Positions 19,575 to 28,666 of a stretch of 64,000 nt of DNA are shown one piece after another. Position numbers and translations under genes: made by a program. The notes under the pieces were generated by a model, which was given only the letters and a program-made list of their open reading frames with translations, was not told the origin of the DNA and made no database searches. Position 1 is the stretch's first letter; every line of letters starts with the position of its first letter. Origin of the DNA: Escherichia phage vB_EcoM_F1; the sequence record NC_054912.1. One strand, written 5' to 3'.

Positions 19575-19982
19575 TCACTCAATTTCAATTTTACTAAATA
19601 CGCAGAATATGATGGAAAAGACTATATAAGCACCACACACAGATTGAACTAATACCATTCCAAAGAACCAAACAATATTATCAAACAATGTCTGTTTTAC
19701 GTCGAAAGGACGTAAACTTACAGTAATATTATCGCCTTTTTCTATTGATGAATACATCTCTGGGGAAATATATTCGCTAAATCTATAACCGTCATTGAGT
19801 TCATATACAGCAATAAACGATAAACTAGATCCCTTTCCTTGAGTTCCTGTAAGGGTATTAACTACAGTAACATCATAATCTTTATAATGCATATAATCAT
19901 TAATTGCGTAATAACCATATGCAATTACTATACATAAACAACATATCAATAAATTCAATCTTTTAATTATCAACTGTTTCAT
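19575..19982 (-). CDS. membrane protein
   Basis: 135 aa with N- and C-terminal hydrophobic helices. Confidence 0.5.
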   Translation of the reverse strand: MKQLIIKRLNLLICCLCIVIAYGYYAINDYMHYKDYDVTVVNTLTGTQGKGSSLSFIAVYELNDGYRFSEYISPEMYSSIEKGDNITVSLRPFDVKQTLFDNIVWFFGMVLVQSVCGAYIVFSIIFCVFSKIEIE

Positions 19983-20037
19983 AATAATCTCAGTTAAAAG
20001 GGCTTAGAACCATTATACCATCCTTGGTATAAAGCGG

Positions 20038-20565
20038 TTATGCGAGTACCGTCTTTAACCGTTCTTCAAACTTCCGAAGAGTATTCTGGCGTTCAGCTCT
20101 TTGCTTTTTGTAAGTTTCAATACGCTCTGAAATGAGAGTGTATCGTTCATTTACTGATTCTTTCATAAAATCAGGAATTTCACGAGAAGATTTAATCTCG
20201 TCAAATTTATCAATAACAGCTTGCTCTTCAGCAATTAAGTTATCATACATCAAAATATCTTTCTTGATGAACTCAATATCTTCTTGAGTTACACGAGATA
20301 ATTTAGATGCTTTATCCTTTTTGTACTGTTCATTAGTATCACGAGACCAGTGTAATGTACGATTTTTATTCGTATTTTTGTAAATTTCTACAATACCGAT
20401 CTCATCAATAATAACGATCCAATTCCAACGAGATTTGTAAATTTGCCCTCCATCAACCGTGATTTCACCTCCGATTGAGATGTCATTAAAGAACTTGCTT
20501 TGTGCTTCAGATTTAAATTTACCATCATTGTAGTTTACCAAGTTGAAAATATCTTTAGCATTCAT
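20038..20565 (-). CDS. hypothetical protein with C-terminal coiled coil
   Basis: About 175 aa from MNAKDIF with a GGAGGA RBS; the listed ORF extends to 20625. Confidence 0.5.
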   Translation of the reverse strand: MNAKDIFNLVNYNDGKFKSEAQSKFFNDISIGGEITVDGGQIYKSRWNWIVIIDEIGIVEIYKNTNKNRTLHWSRDTNEQYKKDKASKLSRVTQEDIEFIKKDILMYDNLIAEEQAVIDKFDEIKSSREIPDFMKESVNERYTLISERIETYKKQRAERQNTLRKFEERLKTVLA

Positions 20566-20591
20566 TTTCTGTTCCTCCGTAGTTGATAGTT

Positions 20592-20624
20592 GTATAGTAC
20601 CACAGAGGAACGGTCTTGTAAACA
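20592..20624 (-). promoter_or_regulatory. T4-type early promoter
   Basis: Same module as other early promoters (ttgtatagtacca ... tgtaaacaa on plus). Confidence 0.5.
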
Positions 20625-20625
20625 A

Positions 20626-20940
20626 CTAAAAGAAACTTCTTTCACAATTTTTTCCACTGAACCACGCGCTCACTGCTTTCTTAGTCTCAGGAGCAGTGTT
20701 ATCCATAAACCATTCAAAGGCAGCCTTTTTATGATTCTGGAGAGCTTCTCGGGCTTTAATCTGCTCACGGTCTATTAACACTAACATATGAGCCTTTCTT
20801 GTCACCAAGGGCTTCTTATGATTCTTGGAGTATTCCCAGTCATTTGTCCAACGCATTGTCGTTGCGAACTGAAATACTGCTTCTTTAATTTTAGTTTCGT
20901 AAATTTCACGAGCCTTTGAGTATAACATCATTACCTCCAT
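20626..20940 (-). CDS. hypothetical protein
   Basis: 104-aa ORF. Confidence 0.5.
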   Translation of the reverse strand: MEVMMLYSKAREIYETKIKEAVFQFATTMRWTNDWEYSKNHKKPLVTRKAHMLVLIDREQIKAREALQNHKKAAFEWFMDNTAPETKKAVSAWFSGKNCERSFF

Positions 20941-21029
20941 TTACCAGTTTAATTCTAGTCATCTTTTTGATGGCAGTCCATATAATCTATTTCTGAACTG
21001 CCTTTTTGTCATAGAAGGCCTCTTATGAA

Positions 21030-21998
21030 TTATTTCAGAAGAGTAACCTCAGCAATTTCTTCCCAACCATTTTTGTCGGTCATAATAAAGTCAGCAAGAT
21101 AAAGAGCAGTACGCAGTGAAACATTGCGTAAACGATTAACATTGACTTTCATCCATGATAATGCTTTATAAGTTTCTTCATCAGAAAGACCGCGCTTTTG
21201 CATCATGTCAGTTGAAAGAATAACATCTTCAACCCTGACCATAATTTCTTCATTAGTGTGAACACCCAAATCCAAATAAACCGAGCGGGACACTAATGCT
21301 TGTAAATGTGGAGCAAGTTTAGTACCACGGTCTAATTCGCGGTCAATGTCAACGTTTGTGATAAAAACAATCGTTCCTTTAAATTCAAACTCACGCTCAA
21401 TGCCTTTTTCTTCTAAGTAAGAAGATGCAGTGCTCCAGCAGACTTTACGGGTCTCTCCAGTGTCCAGAGCAGCTTTCAGAAGATTAAGAATGTCCATATC
21501 AGAGAAAACATCCACATCATCAATCAAAAGGACAGAATTCTCTTCACGATTATTCCAAAGCTGTTCATAAAGACCGATACCAGAGATTTTACCATTAATG
21601 CTTTTATACTCAATGTATCCAATGTCATTTGCTTTATTTAAAGCTTTATCTAAAGAATACGTTTTACCAATACCCGCCGCACCAGAGATAATTAATGAAC
21701 GAATGTTTCCGTTAATAATACCATTCGTCATCATTCCCATAACATTAAATCTTTTATTAATGCGGGTTTTCATATCTTCATATGATTCTTTAACTTCTTC
21801 AACTTTTACACCATCATATGAAATGTCTGATTTGTAAACCCAAACACCGCGACGCTTACCGTCAATTTCAACAAAAACTTTACCATCTCCTTGTGCATCT
21901 ACCGGAGCATTATCTGGGAACCATTCACCTAAGAGCTCAAAAGTTCCAGAGATTTCTTTACCGAAGTAGATACCCTTATTGATAGTTACAGTTTTCAT
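21030..21998 (-). CDS. AAA+/P-loop ATPase
   Basis: Walker A GAAGIGKTY, Walker B LLIDDVD; start taken at MKTVTINKG with a GGAG RBS. Confidence 0.7.
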   Translation of the reverse strand: MKTVTINKGIYFGKEISGTFELLGEWFPDNAPVDAQGDGKVFVEIDGKRRGVWVYKSDISYDGVKVEEVKESYEDMKTRINKRFNVMGMMTNGIINGNIRSLIISGAAGIGKTYSLDKALNKANDIGYIEYKSINGKISGIGLYEQLWNNREENSVLLIDDVDVFSDMDILNLLKAALDTGETRKVCWSTASSYLEEKGIEREFEFKGTIVFITNVDIDRELDRGTKLAPHLQALVSRSVYLDLGVHTNEEIMVRVEDVILSTDMMQKRGLSDEETYKALSWMKVNVNRLRNVSLRTALYLADFIMTDKNGWEEIAEVTLLK

Positions 21999-22030
21999 TT
22001 TATTCTCCAATCTCACATTTGTTTTGATAG

Positions 22031-22067
22031 GGTAATAGTATCACACTACTACCCTTCTGTAAACAAT
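22031..22067 (-). promoter_or_regulatory. T4-type early promoter
   Basis: ggtaatagtatcac ... tgtaaacaa module. Confidence 0.5.
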
Positions 22068-22331
22068 TTATTTTAACGTTCGCCAAATTTTTACTGCTTC
22101 ACGGCGAGATACTTCTACAGCTCCAAGTTCTACAGCTTTTTGGCGTCGCCGAGCGTGTAAGTCATAATGTTTAATGCGTTTATCTTGAAACCAAGAACGT
22201 TTCATTCCTATTGCTTCTGCCATTTCGTGAAGCTCTTCAATATCTCCATCAGTGAACATATGACAATTTTTAGTTGGATGACCGCGAAGTTTCCATCCAT
22301 GATTCATTAAAACATCTACGTAAACTGTCAT
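22068..22331 (-). CDS. DUF4031-like small protein
   Basis: 87 aa; MTVYVDV...CHMFTD...HYDL pattern as I recall for DUF4031; family assignment from memory. Confidence 0.5.
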   Translation of the reverse strand: MTVYVDVLMNHGWKLRGHPTKNCHMFTDGDIEELHEMAEAIGMKRSWFQDKRIKHYDLHARRRQKAVELGAVEVSRREAVKIWRTLK

Positions 22332-22477
22332 TGATTCTTCTCCAAATAAGTTTCGATAATTTTCTGGGCGAGATAAACCGCGTTATCTTCAGTTGCGTCT
22401 TCTAAGAAACTTTCAAAACACTCTGAAATTTCTTCTGTATCAATCAACTTTTTTACTTCAATTGGTGTAATTTTCAT
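22328..22477 (-). CDS. small ORF (49 aa) translationally coupled to the DUF4031-like gene
   Basis: Not in track; ATGA stop/start overlap with the downstream gene. Confidence 0.35.
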   Translation of the reverse strand: MKITPIEVKKLIDTEEISECFESFLEDATEDNAVYLAQKIIETYLEKNQ

Positions 22478-22512
22478 TTTGTTTTCCGTTTAAGTGTTTG
22501 TTTTGATAGTTG

Positions 22513-22544
22513 TATAGTACCATAAAGCTTTATGCTTGTAAACA
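22513..22544 (-). promoter_or_regulatory. T4-type early promoter
   Basis: Minus TTTACA -35, 18-nt spacer, TACTAT -10, A/T-rich upstream. Confidence 0.55.
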
Positions 22545-22565
22545 ACTTTGTGAAAAATTTTTGAA

Positions 22566-22591
22566 ATAAAAAAGGGAGCCCGAAGGCTCCC
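22566..22591 (-). terminator. rho-independent terminator
   Basis: Minus GGGAGCC-UUCG-GGCUCCC followed by U6. Confidence 0.7.
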
Positions 22592-22593
22592 TA

Positions 22594-23607
22594 TCATTTA
22601 TAATAACTTCGGTGGTTTTCAAGATAGACCTTCTCAAGGAAGTCATCCCAGAAACCCATGTCTACTTTTTGCTGCATACCGTTCTTAGAAGCTTCAGTAG
22701 ATGCTGCTTCTACTTGATCGACCACATCTTCCAAAAACTCTTGAACTGTTTTAAATGGATGCTTACCCAACTTCACGTCGAGAATAAATGGAGCATCTTG
22801 GAGTGGATAAACCAAGTCACCAGTTTTGTAAATTTCCAATAGTTGGAGTCCACCACGGCAAGCATGACTCAGAGCTTTCCAGTCAATACCTTCATTGGCT
22901 TCGGCCTTACGAGCGCGTTCACCATATTCAGCATCTAATTTGTTCAGTGACTGCTTAAGCTCAATAAGAGAAAGAGTTGTCTGATATTTACGACCCAACA
23001 CTGTGTAAAACGTCTGTGGGCCTGTTTTCTCATGATTATGGAACACCCATTCACAGAATTCGTTTTCTGGAAGACGATGCTTAATATCTTCAACTTTAGT
23101 ACGACGCTGCTTAATGGAACCGTCTTCTTGGTAATCAACCCATTGCTCAGGGATTTGATTAACTACTTTCAATACATCGCGTAATGCAGCCAAACGAGAA
23201 CCCTTAACGCCGTATTTAGAAGCTTGCTTACGGACATATCCTAAATATGATTTCATGTTAGTCGTATAAAAACGAGAACGGTTGTCTTGAATAAACTTCC
23301 ATACATCAGGCAAATCAGATTTAACCACTAGTTCAGGCGGAGTGTGAAGCATATCCAATGCTACAGTTTCACCATCTGCCGCTAATTTAAAGAAATACTT
23401 AAGACTGTATAGTTCATGGTCAATATCATCTTTAGTGTTTTTAGATGATGTGTTGTTAGTGTTTTTGCTCATATGCTCTTTAACATTTCCGATAAGAATA
23501 TCGCGAGCAGGAGGAACAAAAATTTCTTTAAAATCTACATCAGATTCTGGAGTAGAAGTTCCATAAAGATGACTACCAAAATAGCTTTTCATTACTGTTT
23601 TCATCAT
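22594..23607 (-). CDS. nucleotidyltransferase-fold protein (Pol-beta-like GS...DxD motif)
   Basis: 337 aa; N-terminal GSHLYGTSTPESDVD with a candidate third Asp about 60 aa downstream. Confidence 0.6.
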   Translation of the reverse strand: MMKTVMKSYFGSHLYGTSTPESDVDFKEIFVPPARDILIGNVKEHMSKNTNNTSSKNTKDDIDHELYSLKYFFKLAADGETVALDMLHTPPELVVKSDLPDVWKFIQDNRSRFYTTNMKSYLGYVRKQASKYGVKGSRLAALRDVLKVVNQIPEQWVDYQEDGSIKQRRTKVEDIKHRLPENEFCEWVFHNHEKTGPQTFYTVLGRKYQTTLSLIELKQSLNKLDAEYGERARKAEANEGIDWKALSHACRGGLQLLEIYKTGDLVYPLQDAPFILDVKLGKHPFKTVQEFLEDVVDQVEAASTEASKNGMQQKVDMGFWDDFLEKVYLENHRSYYK

Positions 23608-24065
23608 TCAGCCTTATATTCAATAACAGGACATACTTTAGCTTTACGAGCTTTTAAAAATTCAACGATAATCGATTTCTTGGGTTGAATAGGAGGTAAA
23701 CCTTTATTTTTCCTATCAATGTTTTCTACGTGTAAAGCATAATCCTTTTTCCATTTATAATCTTTATATTTTTCACGCAAATGTACAGGAATAACAAATG
23801 AACCAATAATAAGTAAAACAAGCAAAATGGCAAGTATAAATGCTGATGGAAGCAAAGTCCATAAACTACCGAAAATAAGCCATCGTTGTAAGCTTTCTGC
23901 ACAAATAATTGTTAGCCCTACGAGTATAGCACACCCAAAAATAGAAACGAAAAATGTAGGGATAACAATAGACCAAAAATATGCGCATAGTGTCTTAGGT
24001 CGTTGCCATTCATCGTTAAACAATTTGAATAATTTATAGTGCCAAGAGTTTTCATTAATAATCAT
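23604..24065 (-). CDS. membrane protein
   Basis: 153 aa with 2-3 predicted TM helices. Confidence 0.5.
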   Translation of the reverse strand: MIINENSWHYKLFKLFNDEWQRPKTLCAYFWSIVIPTFFVSIFGCAILVGLTIICAESLQRWLIFGSLWTLLPSAFILAILLVLLIIGSFVIPVHLREKYKDYKWKKDYALHVENIDRKNKGLPPIQPKKSIIVEFLKARKAKVCPVIEYKAE

Positions 24066-24067
24066 AA

Positions 24068-24589
24068 CTATCCTTTCATTGAAGGCGTAACAGTTGTTAA
24101 ATACTTAATCATAGCTTCAGCTTCTGATTTTGATAGTGAAATTTCTCCATTGTTTTGACGAATAGAAATAAAATCCGGATGACGGTCACCACCAGCTTTT
24201 AAAACACACATATAAGTATCAGTTTCATCTTCAATATCTGAAATGATTGAAGCAGTTCCACATGAATGTGGTTTTTGATAAATCAATACAGCTTTTCTTC
24301 CACCGTTTGACTGTTCATAAACTTTTAACACATCAAACAAATCGCTTCTTTTATCAATAGCTAAGATGTTGTTTTCATCTTCAATATTAAATCCTTCGGA
24401 TACTTCATAAAGTGTCACCCATAAATCACCAATATCAATAACAGCGTTCACTTTTCCATGACTTTCAAGAGCATTACAAATTTTCTTAATTTCATCATAA
24501 CTCATTTTAATAATATCATCTCCTTGAATAAGGAAGATGTCATTTTTAAATTCAACACGAATTAAACCACTTCCACTTGAAATAAACAT
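24068..24589 (-). CDS. hypothetical protein, paralogue of the next gene
   Basis: 173 aa; C-terminal ...SEAEAMIKYLTTVTPSMKG resembles the neighbour. Confidence 0.5.
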   Translation of the reverse strand: MFISSGSGLIRVEFKNDIFLIQGDDIIKMSYDEIKKICNALESHGKVNAVIDIGDLWVTLYEVSEGFNIEDENNILAIDKRSDLFDVLKVYEQSNGGRKAVLIYQKPHSCGTASIISDIEDETDTYMCVLKAGGDRHPDFISIRQNNGEISLSKSEAEAMIKYLTTVTPSMKG

Positions 24590-24595
24590 ATTTCC

Positions 24596-25150
24596 TCACT
24601 TTGAAATCATAGTTGGAATGACAGAATCGAGATAAGTCTTTAGCGCAATAGCTTCGTCTTTGGTAAATGTGACAATATACGATCGAAAATCATCAATTTG
24701 ACGAATAGTTAAGACATCACCATCTTCATAGCATTTTGATACGTTTAAAACAGTTTCATCATTCTGATTGCAAGCGTTAGTAATAATAGCATTGCAATTT
24801 TTGAGCCATTTTAAACTATGTTTTCTTTCATTAGAATAATAAAAATATTTAATCTTATCTATAAAACTATCCCAATGGATAACTGATAAACACATTGACT
24901 CACTTTTAATATTAAATCCTGGGCATGAAGAATAAAAATGAATTTTGTGCTCATCATTGATGCTTACTATTTTATCAGTATAAGGATATTCAATTTGGGT
25001 TAAATGAATGATTTCACTAGGCGTAAAATATAGCATATCGTCTTCTTGTGTCAAACGATACATATTATTTACTTTTTCTATAGCTAATTCACCAAAAAGC
25101 GGACTAACTTCTAATACTAATCGTTTCATATTAATCCTTTTTATTGGCAC
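24596..25150 (-). CDS. hypothetical protein, paralogue of the previous gene
   Basis: 184 aa; C-terminal ...DEAIALKTYLDSVIPTMISK. Confidence 0.5.
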   Translation of the reverse strand: MPIKRINMKRLVLEVSPLFGELAIEKVNNMYRLTQEDDMLYFTPSEIIHLTQIEYPYTDKIVSINDEHKIHFYSSCPGFNIKSESMCLSVIHWDSFIDKIKYFYYSNERKHSLKWLKNCNAIITNACNQNDETVLNVSKCYEDGDVLTIRQIDDFRSYIVTFTKDEAIALKTYLDSVIPTMISK

Positions 25151-25409
25151 GAATTTGTTCTAAAATTTTAGAATATTCCTTTGTATCAGATTTACGTACA
25201 ATTGATACACTATAAGGCATACTATCGGTGTCTTTTATAAAGCGTTCCAAATGACACTCTAACAAAATTTCTGGATTATAAATCGTGTACATCAAATTAC
25301 CTGTTGCTCCACGATATTGGCAGATTTCTACTGATTGAACACCATTCCATAATTTTGTTAAAACTAAATCACCTACTTCTAATTTAGGAAAGCCCATGTT
25401 ATTCACCAA
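25131..25409 (-). CDS. hypothetical small protein
   Basis: 92-aa ORF. Confidence 0.45.
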   Translation of the reverse strand: MVNNMGFPKLEVGDLVLTKLWNGVQSVEICQYRGATGNLMYTIYNPEILLECHLERFIKDTDSMPYSVSIVRKSDTKEYSKILEQIRANKKD

Positions 25410-25584
25410 TTAAAGTTTCAATATAAGAATCAAGATTTACTTTAGCTTCTTCCATAAGAGTTTTGTATTTAATCTTGTTAGCATGTCCGGAGAAAGCTGA
25501 TTCATCAATAACTGTTGCTGTATGAACAGCTTTGCTATATGTTTCAATTAATTCTTTTAATTTAAAAGCCTGCTCACTTGTCAT
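25399..25584 (-). CDS. small helical protein, member of tandem paralogue set
   Basis: 61 aa, MTSEQAFKLKELIETY... Confidence 0.45.
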   Translation of the reverse strand: MTSEQAFKLKELIETYSKAVHTATVIDESAFSGHANKIKYKTLMEEAKVNLDSYIETLIGE

Positions 25585-25748
25585 TACATACTCCTTTGAA
25601 TAATATCAATAATGTTGTTCACCAGATTATAAGTAAACATTGGGTAATTATATTGAATCATCACATACACAACAAACAAAACTTTCATTCTCTTCTCCTT
25701 GGCAGTTGACAAGATTACTATACCATAACCTTGCCAACTTGTAAACCA

Positions 25749-25922
25749 TTAAATGACGTTTTCAATAAAATTCTGAAGCTTTGTATGAGCATCAACCATG
25801 ATTTTCAATTCTTCTTTAGCGAAAGCTGTACCTCTTTCACGAGAAGAACATTCATAGTCAGAAACTGCATTAGCATATTCTTCAATTAGCTTCATTAAAA
25901 ACATCTGCTTTTCAGTTTTCAT
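25749..25922 (-). CDS. small helical protein, member of tandem paralogue set (unlisted)
   Basis: 57 aa MKTEKQMFLMKLIEEYANAV...; found by manual translation. Confidence 0.4.
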   Translation of the reverse strand: MKTEKQMFLMKLIEEYANAVSDYECSSRERGTAFAKEELKIMVDAHTKLQNFIENVI

Positions 25923-26106
25923 TATTCCACCTAATCATTTCAAGATATTGAACTAACTTAGCTTTGGATTTATCCAAATCCTTTTTAGCTGCTTCTATAC
26001 CGTCGTATGAATATCCTTCACAATGCTCAACTGCTAATTGGTATGAATCTATTTCAATATCACGTGCTAATTTAATGATTTTTTCAAACTGTTCACGTGT
26101 TAGCAT
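25912..26106 (-). CDS. small helical protein, member of tandem paralogue set
   Basis: 64 aa, MLTREQFEKIIKLARD... Confidence 0.45.
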   Translation of the reverse strand: MLTREQFEKIIKLARDIEIDSYQLAVEHCEGYSYDGIEAAKKDLDKSKAKLVQYLEMIRWNNEN

Positions 26107-26108
26107 AC

Positions 26109-26300
26109 TTACACTCTCGTATTATGATCGATAATTTCATCAAGAAACATATCTAACGCTTCTACAGCATTATTAAATTTAGCTTCAAATTCTTCAATAC
26201 CTGATAAACCTGATAAGGCAAAGTTAATGCGTTCCTCATCTGCTTTACGAATTGAAGCCACTAATTCCTTGATTTTATCCGCTTGCTCTACACTAATCAT
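26109..26300 (-). CDS. small helical protein, member of tandem paralogue set
   Basis: About 63 aa from [16 protein letters not shown]; the listed ORF extends to 26336. Confidence 0.45.
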   Translation of the reverse strand: MISVEQADKIKELVASIRKADEERINFALSGLSGIEEFEAKFNNAVEALDMFLDEIIDHNTRV

Positions 26301-26533
26301 TATTCCACCACATATGAAAGAGAGAATATTGCACACGCCATGTGAGTTGCAACTTCATCACACATATCATAACGTTTCTTAAGAAGTTCTACAAGTTCTT
26401 CACTAGTGACTTCATCCATGTCGACGAAAAAATCACCATTAATGATGACATAGATATTTCCTTCTTGATTAAGTGCTTCAATTTTCATGATGTTCTCCTC
26501 TTTATCCGATGGTTGTATAGTATCACAGCTCAA
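26300..26533 (-). CDS. hypothetical small protein
   Basis: 77-aa ORF. Confidence 0.45.
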
Positions 26534-26547
26534 ATGGAAAGTAAACC
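26513..26547 (-). promoter_or_regulatory. T4-type early promoter
   Basis: ggttgtatagtatcac ... agtaaacc module. Confidence 0.5.
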
Positions 26548-26556
26548 GGTAAAATG

Positions 26557-26578
26557 AAAAAAGTCTCCCGAAGGAGAC
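26557..26578 (-). terminator. rho-independent terminator
   Basis: Minus GUCUCC-UUCG-GGAGAC followed by U6. Confidence 0.65.
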
Positions 26579-26583
26579 TAATG

Positions 26584-26859
26584 TTATTCGAGGGAAAGAA
26601 GATACTTACTCTGGTAAAACATTCCAGTAATATCATCTATCGTGCTTTGGATGGCTGGAGGCATTTCTTTATAAATGCTGTTAGATTGGTCTAGTATGCG
26701 ATCAATCATTTTAATTGTGTCGGTAGGAAGTTTACTAGCATCTGGAATTGAAGGTGTGTATTTTCTACCAGAATACCCCAAATATTGCTCACCAAATTTA
26801 TCAATCAAATCTGGCAACTCGGAGAAAATAAAATCGTCTAGCATAACTTTTAGTTTCAA
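26584..26859 (-). CDS. hypothetical protein (rI.-1 position)
   Basis: 91-aa ORF just downstream of rI. Confidence 0.5.
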
Positions 26860-26955
26860 AATGCGCAGAATGAAAATAAGCTTGTGCAGCCATTAATAAA
26901 CCTAAGTATTCATCTGCCTTTGAAGGTTTTCCACTTTGTGAAAAGTCGCTGAATT

Positions 26956-27249
26956 TCATTCAGTCTCCAATTTAATGTTCATAATTCTAGCGTATGATTG
27001 TGCCATCTCCGCGCCTCGCTCTATACATTCAAAATCGGAAGAGCACGGGTCATTTTTATAAGTCGTTCGCATAAAACTATAGAACTGTTCAGATGATTCT
27101 ACGCTTTTATTTTCAAAAAGCATATAAACGTGTCTAATACCAGATTCCATAAATTTATCAAAATGAGGATCGACATTCGCTTCAATTGGTGGAGATAAAG
27201 CAAACGCTAATCCTAGCATGGCAAATAGTGCCGTTGCTTTTAAGGCCAT
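26956..27249 (-). CDS. rI: lysis-inhibition regulator rI
   Basis: 97 aa with N-terminal signal-anchor; matches T4 RI. Confidence 0.9.
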   Translation of the reverse strand: MALKATALFAMLGLAFALSPPIEANVDPHFDKFMESGIRHVYMLFENKSVESSEQFYSFMRTTYKNDPCSSDFECIERGAEMAQSYARIMNIKLETE

Positions 27250-28107: not shown

Positions 28108-28293
28108 TTAAAGCGTATTCACATAAGCTATTAATTCATTTTCTTTCTTATCAAACCGATCAGCAAATTCTTCCTGCTGTTCGGGAGATAACGGGCCGTA
28201 TTCATCATAAAAGGTGTTTGCTTCTGTATGCTCATCTAGAAGTTCATGGATAAGCTCAAATAATTTATCTTTTTGTTCTTTACTCAGACTCAT
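28108..28293 (-). CDS. small helical protein (tk.1 position), related to the tandem small-protein family
   Basis: 61 aa, MSLSKEQKDKLFELIHELL... Confidence 0.5.
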   Translation of the reverse strand: MSLSKEQKDKLFELIHELLDEHTEANTFYDEYGPLSPEQQEEFADRFDKKENELIAYVNTL

Positions 28294-28459
28294 ATATTAA
28301 TTTCCAGGAGTTTTAAAATAATTCGCTTTTGCTTAAATATTTCCATAGTTAAATGACCAGTATCTTTTTGACCGATTCCAATGGCAAAACCTTTATTAAC
28401 AGCGAGTTCAATTAAATTATCAAGCTCACGTAACACTTCGTATTGTAACTCAAAACTAT

Positions 28460-28666
28460 TCATTTTGGTTTACCTTCTTTAACGAAATCTGGATAAGGAT
28501 AAAATCCCGAATAAAATCCTTCACCTTTATGATTGATACATCCTTTATTAGAACAATAGCACCAATAATCGAAATCACAAGCCATTTCATCGTTGCATAA
28601 AGCAAAAACAACCGGCCACTTACACTTTTCACAATGGGCATTTTTAAGAATACTAGTTTGGCTCAT
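28460..28666 (-). CDS. Cys-rich small protein
   Basis: About 68 aa with several Cys pairs; start set at the internal Met giving an ATGA overlap. Confidence 0.45.
   Translation of the reverse strand: MSQTSILKNAHCEKCKWPVVFALCNDEMACDFDYWCYCSNKGCINHKGEGFYSGFYPYPDFVKEGKPK

Follow-up and report, generated by a model that had tools for sequence, protein, structure and literature searches.

Five small genes in the nrdC.11–vs region

We analyzed a 64,000-nucleotide (nt) stretch of Escherichia phage vB_EcoM_F1 (sequence record NC_054912.1), hereafter the window, and report on five small open reading frames (ORFs) of 57 to 64 amino acids (aa) that encode diverged members of one protein family, Pfam DUF7438 (PF24219). 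The ORFs are designated A to E in coordinate order along the window. The region between positions 25000 and 28500 was 100% identical to Escherichia phage vB_EcoM_FN (MZ170041.1, Tequatrovirus), in whose genome positions 32001–57000 correspond to window bases 1–25000, and approximately 97.6% identical to RB3-type phages. All of the genes discussed lie on the minus strand, in an accessory region that is bounded by nrdC.11 and vs and also holds rI and tk. An earlier note on this DNA had reported the five ORFs, including B, and had assigned them to a phage accessory region; both the ORFs at their positions (Table 1) and this setting were confirmed.

The five proteins were 70–100% identical to deposited T-even proteins encoded at the same genome positions. 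RB3 and T4 annotation, together with profile scans, identified B as the orthologue of T4 mobD.2a, C as that of mobD.3, and D as that of mobD.4, whereas A has an orthologue in RB3 and none in T4. The earlier note had placed E at the tk.1 position beside tk; E does occupy this position, but by annotation and profile scans it is the orthologue of T4 tk.2. T4 tk.1 represents a sixth subfamily, which is not present in the window. Compared with T4, this phage thus has an intact mobD.2a and the extra copy A and lacks tk.1. For D, a longer ORF with a GTG start that reaches position 26336 was supported neither by RB3 annotation nor by the family alignment. The genes had also been described as a tandem array. 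The four ORFs A to D are indeed clustered, but they are not strictly adjacent, because A is separated from B by mobD.2 and an early-type promoter.

A to E are paralogues of the DUF7438 family

The DUF7438 profile matched A to E with 58.1, 54.2, 64.1, 53.4, and 69.6 bits, respectively (E-values from 3e-14 to 3e-19; gathering cut-off, 25 bits), and the matches covered positions 1 to 56 or 57 of the 57-position profile. In PHROGs, the proteins were split over three families (653, 2758, and 4859) with mutual cross-hits; A, for example, matched phrog_4859 with cross-hits to phrog_653 and phrog_2758. No DUF7438 match was obtained with five reversed and five shuffled versions of A to E, even at E≤10. 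The reversal control preserves composition and amphipathic periodicity, and low-complexity helical bias, which the earlier note had raised as a possible sole source of the similarity, does not explain it.

Smith–Waterman alignments compared with 1000 shuffles gave z-scores of 5.2 (A–B), 6.0 (A–D), 3.5 (C–E), 3.3 (A–E), and 2.5 (D–E), and the remaining five of the ten pairs were individually not significant (z<1.5). In leave-one-group-out searches, a profile was built from four orthologue groups with the fifth omitted, and the resulting profile was scored against the remaining six-frame segments of the window, about 914 in number. Every omitted paralogue was the top-scoring segment (E = 8e-8 for A, 3.6e-4 for D, 0.016 for C, 0.044 for B, and 0.073 for E), and the best unrelated ORF reached only E = 0.5–1.0. 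Furthermore, intermediate sequences of other T4-like genera connected the paralogue groups in one alignment. The profile matches, the reversed and shuffled controls, and the leave-one-group-out ranking bear out the shared paralogy that the earlier note had proposed: A to E are genuine, diverged paralogues of one two-helix protein family. The N-terminal pattern given there (M-x-S/T-x-EQ-x-x-K-L/I-x-E-L-I) was recovered in the alignment as conserved columns with T/S, E, Q, K, L/I, L, and I/V, with a partial fit for B.

Pairwise protein identity among A to E was 14–32%, and no similarity between paralogues was found at the DNA level, where the sole 11-nt match was the physical overlap of B and C, indicating that the duplications are old. 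No further copies came to light when all six frames of the 168-kb vB_EcoM_FN genome, the window included, were scanned with the profile (best unrelated ORF, E of about 0.3), and a neighbouring 57-aa gene at 28290–28463 (phrog_3452) showed no detectable membership (E = 2.6). The family itself is already catalogued, as a Pfam domain of unknown function (DUF) and in PHROGs, and its genes have long stood in T4 annotation as hypotheticals; they are nothing new in kind.

Table 1. Genes and predicted expression signals of the mobD–tk part of the window.
Feature	Position	Strand	Length (aa)	DUF7438 E-value	PHROG	Remarks
A	25399–25584	minus	61	1.1e-15	phrog_4859 (E 4e-38)	
mobD.2	25584–25688	minus	34			hydrophobic; unrelated to the family; separates B from A
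Early-type promoter (predicted)	25717–25745	minus				TTTACA, 17 nt, TATAGT, with TG; between B and mobD.2
B	25749–25922	minus	57	1.9e-14	phrog_2758	RB3 note 'mobD.2a'
C	25912–26106	minus	64	1.5e-17	phrog_653	annotated as mobD.3 in RB3 and T4
D	26109–26300	minus	63 (from ATG)	3.3e-14	phrog_653	mobD.4
mobD.5	26300–26488	minus	62		phrog_3024	opens the operon; outside the family
Early-type promoter (predicted)	26517–26546	minus				GTTTAC, spacer, TG-n-TACTAT; upstream of mobD.5; read from the sequence
Terminator-like hairpin with T run	26562–26579	minus				between rI.-1 and the mobD.5 promoter
E	28108–28293	minus	61	2.9e-19		RB3 note 'tk.2'; directly upstream of tk

Predicted fold and conserved residues

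AlphaFold2 modelled E as an antiparallel two-helix hairpin (helices at residues 5–32 and 37–60; pLDDT 91.3) and B, the most divergent member, as the same hairpin (residues 4–30 and 32–55; pLDDT 95.3). The all-helical character predicted in the earlier note therefore holds for the two members modelled. The hairpin loop of C carries a conserved CEGYSY motif, and relatives of D occur as loop-length variants of 60, 63, and 67 aa. The proteins are acidic (pI 4.3–5.3), strongly so only in D and E (net charges of −7 and −10) and mildly so in A, B, and C (−3, −2, and −3).

Per-column analysis showed that about 11 columns are common to the paralogues, namely the N-terminal S/T-x-E-Q-x-x-K and a hydrophobic core consisting of L/I10, L13, I/V14, and position 17 in helix 1 and of L52, Y/F55, I/L/V56, and L/I59 in helix 2. 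In the models, the S/T lies just before the first helical residue, the E and Q at the first turn, and the K one turn later, an arrangement that suggests a helix N-cap with a salt-bridge motif. No conserved polar surface fit for a shared active or binding site was seen among the conserved columns, and no shared nucleotide motif was seen around the start codons beyond the E-Q codons. Most of the other columns had four or five different group consensus residues, and mean within-group identity per column was 0.7–1.0, indicating that each paralogue retains its own surface. The hydrophobic positions fill heptad positions a, d, and e, which makes the hydrophobic face wider than a two-helix interface requires.

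Comparison with known families and database labels

Sequence searches found no solved relative (best E = 0.07, to designed repeat proteins), and a Foldseek search against the PDB returned nothing at E<0.2. The top Foldseek match was the HK853-type DHp hairpin, with a probability of up to 0.92 and 22–25% identity over approximately 60 columns, and E resembles DHp in carrying 'IHELLDEH' in helix 1. We rejected mimicry of DHp or of histidine kinases, since the Foldseek E-value was 0.2 or higher, the histidine occurs only in group E (column 15), and no HisKA match was above threshold. The resemblance is generic to hairpins, and the family is not a member of that group. Structural neighbours in BFVD were solely uncharacterised proteins of 53–61 aa from T4-like phages of Escherichia, Citrobacter, Yersinia, Enterobacter, and Klebsiella.

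ColE1 Rop/Rom is a helical hairpin of 63 aa whose dimer, a four-helix bundle, binds RNA kissing complexes. The DUF7438 proteins could be directed at nucleic acids too, by binding RNA as Rop does or, as acidic DNA mimics comparable to T7 Gp5.9, Ocr, and Arn, by blocking host enzymes that bind DNA. We consider this very improbable. Homology to Rop (PF01815) was rejected with an hhalign probability of 0.3% and no Pfam Rop match at E≤1; Rop is an analogue at most. The DUF7438 proteins differ from Rop in being acidic, and their net negative charge speaks against direct binding of RNA or DNA. DNA mimicry, for its part, is probably not a family trait, because A, B, and C are only mildly acidic.

Other small early phage inhibitors are T4 AsiA and Dmd, lambda CIII, and the anti-CRISPRs. 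The DUF7438 proteins are like these and T7 Gp5.9 in being tiny, early, and dispensable on laboratory hosts, with a patchy distribution and an accessory-region location, and the sequence and structure searches found no sequence similarity or specific structural similarity to any of them.

Two product names attached to these proteins were also examined. The 'helicase loader' label that phrog_4859 lends to A was rejected: BLASTP of A against gp59 of this phage gave a best E-value of 0.46 over 8 residues, and A has 61 aa, whereas the gp59 gene has 654 nt. The RefSeq name of T4 mobD.4, 'molybdopterin-guanine dinucleotide biosynthesis protein MobD', was rejected because Pfam and NCBIfam scans gave only DUF7438 matches; no NCBIfam model matched A to E. 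The latter label arose from a gene-name collision, mobD standing for 'mobile endonuclease D'. Both wrong names have spread in public records without sequence support.

Expression signals and expression of the T4 orthologues

Judged from their sequences, the promoter upstream of mobD.5 would drive mobD.5, D, C, and B, and the promoter between B and mobD.2 would drive mobD.2 and A. The counterpart of the former is the experimentally mapped T4 mobD.5 promoter (PMC1702504), and the position of the latter matches the T4 early promoters Pe57954/Pe57.9 (PMC6024815). A recognisable ribosome-binding site precedes four of the five genes (A to D; AAGGAG in A). Neighbouring genes are tightly packed and either overlap, as TAATG or ATGA, or leave a gap of 2 nt; the start of A overlaps the mobD.2 stop as TAATG, and E overlaps its upstream gene as ATGA.

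In T4, early mRNA has been reported for mobD.2a, mobD.3, mobD.4, tk.1, and tk.2 (PMC9697503 supplement). According to the same data set, the proteins of mobD.3 and mobD.4 (each classed as 'early protein') and of tk.1 and tk.2 ('middle protein') were detected, and that of the truncated T4 mobD.2a was not. In the T4 reference sequence (NC_000866, 58049–58165), mobD.2a is cut short at 38 aa, and the rest of the gene can be read in a different frame. In the T4D genome used for a HIDEN-SEQ study, a full 174-nt mobD.2a is annotated (bioRxiv 10.1101/2025.11.20.689424). The truncation in the reference may be a frameshift error or a strain-specific mutation.

Distribution and copy number

A word-indexed search of 5.8e9 proteins yielded 120 clusters, each of which shared 54% identity or more with one of A to E, and an exhaustive HMMER search of 1.84e9 cluster representatives yielded only 32 at E≤1e-3, one of them spurious. 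A 936-aa repeat protein among the HMMER matches (P0132) was unrelated and matched only via a repeated 'LSSEQR..LTELLH' motif. Two apparent domain fusions (P0013 and P0055) were set aside as uninformative: they reflect stop-codon read-through into mobD.2 and a chimeric N-terminus on short contigs. All traced members belonged to Straboviridae, and the named matches were T-even phages of E. coli and Shigella or phage contigs in bacterial assemblies. Database searches and synteny thus placed the family in Straboviridae only, in the nrdC–tk accessory region.

A search for related loci that used mobD.3 alone gave 7 loci, and copy numbers outside Tequatrovirus were obtained from scans around tk in nine further phages. 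DUF7438 copies numbered three in Mosigvirus and in Dhakavirus, two in Gelderlandvirus and in Citrobacter phage Ursula, and one in Jiaodavirus; none was detected within 8 kb of tk in Karamvirus, Gualtarvirus, Slopekvirus, or Biquartavirus. Copy number therefore ranges from five to zero across genera. The tk-adjacent copy (the E position) is the most widely kept, and the mobD-side array is an expansion within genera of E. coli phages, as judged from these comparisons. The set also varies among Tequatroviruses, in which A, B, and tk.1 come and go.

These data bear on two explanations in which the proteins would act within the phage. According to the first, which we regard as unlikely, they would be accessory subunits that tune the phage's own early proteins, the tk-adjacent copy acting on Tk or the nucleotide-precursor machinery. 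In Tequatrovirus, Mosigvirus, Dhakavirus, Gelderlandvirus, and Jiaodavirus, a copy lies directly upstream of tk and often abuts or overlaps its start (the two copies of phage Ursula are farther upstream, separated from tk by two small ORFs), and T4 tk.1, tk.2, and tk are all classed as 'early RNA, middle protein' (PMC9697503 supplement). However, the four genera without a detectable copy within 8 kb do have tk, the mobD-side copies adjoin no enzyme gene, adjacency in T4-type genomes is often mere synteny, and T4 tk is itself non-essential. According to the second, to which we give a similarly low likelihood, the paralogues would form a self-associating set of homo- and heterodimeric four-helix bundles, whose combinatorial assembly would be the functional unit. 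A genus with a single copy, Jiaodavirus, and the free variation of copy sets elsewhere make no obligatory pairing evident.

Selection on the coding sequences

Among Tequatroviruses, within-orthologue ratios of nonsynonymous to synonymous substitution rates (dN/dS) were about 0–0.3 at dS values of 0.06–0.6 for the five genes, with somewhat higher values for D (A, 0.16–0.24; B, 0.0–0.13; C, 0–0.22; D, 0.07–0.5, and 0.8 in one pair). These ratios indicate that A to E are maintained coding genes under purifying selection and not noise. The same result weighs on the view that the genes are functionless or near-neutral ORFans that persist as passengers in a hyperplastic region prone to recombination. 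The lack of a phenotype in three genome-wide data sets on T4 would fit that view, as would the frequent loss of copies and the frameshifted mobD.2a of the T4 reference. Against it stand the low dN/dS in all five groups at dS of up to 0.6, reading frames that are kept across genera at dS>1, the detection of the proteins in T4, and the conservation of ribosome-binding sites and translational coupling, and we judge it scarcely probable.

E is present in Tequatrovirus as two deep alleles, a window/RB3 type and a T4 type, with about 63% aa identity, dN of 0.36, and dS>1. The tk protein, unlike the adjoining E, is at least 99% identical across the Tequatrovirus records listed. Divergent E alleles beside a near-identical tk suggest allelic replacement by recombination at this tk-adjacent spot.

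Dispensability and proposed role

The T4 orthologues are dispensable under the conditions reported. A spontaneous T4 deletion from nrdC.11 to mobD.3 is viable (PMC9825161), CRISPRi-ART knockdown of mobD.2a, mobD.3, mobD.4, tk.1, and tk.2 was scored as 'Not Fit', meaning no fitness effect (PMC11879866 supplement), and all five were classed as 'Non-essential' by transposon mapping in the HIDEN-SEQ study (bioRxiv 10.1101/2025.11.20.689424). Our literature searches found no paper that names DUF7438, none that names mobD.2a or mobD.4 in its main text, and no assigned function; mobD.3 was mentioned once, as a deletion endpoint.

We tentatively favor, at not quite an even chance, a role of A to E as early stoichiometric binders, that is, inhibitors or modulators with paralogue-specific targets among host or phage proteins, in host takeover or in counter-defence on particular hosts. 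Binding of host factors, suggested in the earlier note as a frequent role of such repeated small paralogues, would be a reasonable candidate role. Synthesis would fall within the first minutes after infection, and the proteins would be of benefit only on those hosts. The wide hydrophobic face would be buried either in a dimeric four-helix bundle or against a docking partner, and specificity would reside in the paralogue-specific surfaces that purifying selection keeps. Since only the core and the N-cap are common to the paralogues and each group keeps a surface of its own, each paralogue may be a binder with its own target. An enzymatic role does not appear plausible for a hairpin scaffold. 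This role is consistent with the early-type promoters of the window and the early timing of expression in T4, with small acidic hairpins that have no conserved polar site apt for catalysis, and with variable copy number, dispensability, and nearby anti-defence genes. With regard to the last, the HIDEN-SEQ preprint shows that other small genes of unknown function in this accessory region counter host defences, nrdC.1 acting on Septu and bas37_0203 on Druantia III (bioRxiv 10.1101/2025.11.20.689424).

Several observations weigh against this role. In the same preprint, the T4 orthologues are not among the genes reported as conditionally essential on defence-expressing or clinical hosts; in the comparisons examined, tk.1 and tk.2 were not depleted under RexAB, and none of the five was depleted in one further comparison (bioRxiv 10.1101/2025.11.20.689424). 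The defence challenge described there covered few systems and did not address redundancy among paralogues. Such redundancy could mask the effects of single insertions, which we count as an excuse and not as evidence. Literature searches that included toxicity and interactome screens of T4 early genes found no reported partner, toxicity, or phenotype. Finally, the conserved tk adjacency of one copy could instead signal a role internal to the phage. In order of likelihood, we rank the rival explanations as partners among the phage's own proteins, a self-pairing set, Rop-like binders or DNA mimics, and near-neutral ORFans.

A broader proposal is that DUF7438 constitutes an unrecognised, diversifying T-even family of counter-defence or host-takeover inhibitors, in which one hairpin was duplicated up to five or six times; this is possible, but we hold it to be rather doubtful. 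Each copy would then neutralise a different host protein, or variants of one, and redundancy or host specificity would account for silent single-gene screens on laboratory strains.

Neighbouring genes

A 92-aa ORF lies between mobD.1 and A (25131–25409, minus strand). It is present in RB3 and absent from T4, and together with A it seems to form a single insertion relative to T4 that is gained or lost as a whole.

A second tandem pair of paralogues adjoins the array (24068–24589 and 24596–25150, minus strand). Its 184-aa ORF is the orthologue of mobD.1 (86% identity to T4), and the 173-aa ORF beside it is a mobD.1 paralogue (27% identity, E = 2e-9). The latter sits between a gene for a 153-aa membrane protein and mobD.1, which is the site of the mobD homing endonuclease gene in T4 and RB3; the endonuclease gene itself appears to be absent from this phage.

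The rI.-1 gene (26584–26959, minus strand; DUF5856, phrog_858, labelled 'starvation-inducible transcriptional regulator') has an 11-bp deletion relative to T4, which splits it into a 52-aa ORF (26801–26959) and a 91-aa ORF (26584–26859). The split gene is probably a pseudogene in this phage, or else a sequencing error of the deposited record. In the part of the window from 19575 to 25150, gene sizes and order mirror genes 0202–0209 of phage Bas37. An ORF at approximately 20038–20625 (minus strand) matches bas37_0203 (528 nt), the reported inhibitor of Druantia type III, by size and synteny alone.

Implications

The analysis disposes of two product names that mislead in the databases, 'helicase loader' and 'molybdopterin-guanine dinucleotide biosynthesis protein MobD'. 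No other large virulent phage has been studied as thoroughly as T4, yet about half of its early genes are without a function; DUF7438 accounts for five such genes in one phage. In the same part of the genome, a compact, expressed, selected, and copy-variable profile of this kind has recently pointed the way to new anti-defence genes. Because five 'hypothetical' early genes are one family, redundancy may hide the effect of a single knock-out or insertion, and deletion of multiple copies is therefore the right test for a phenotype.

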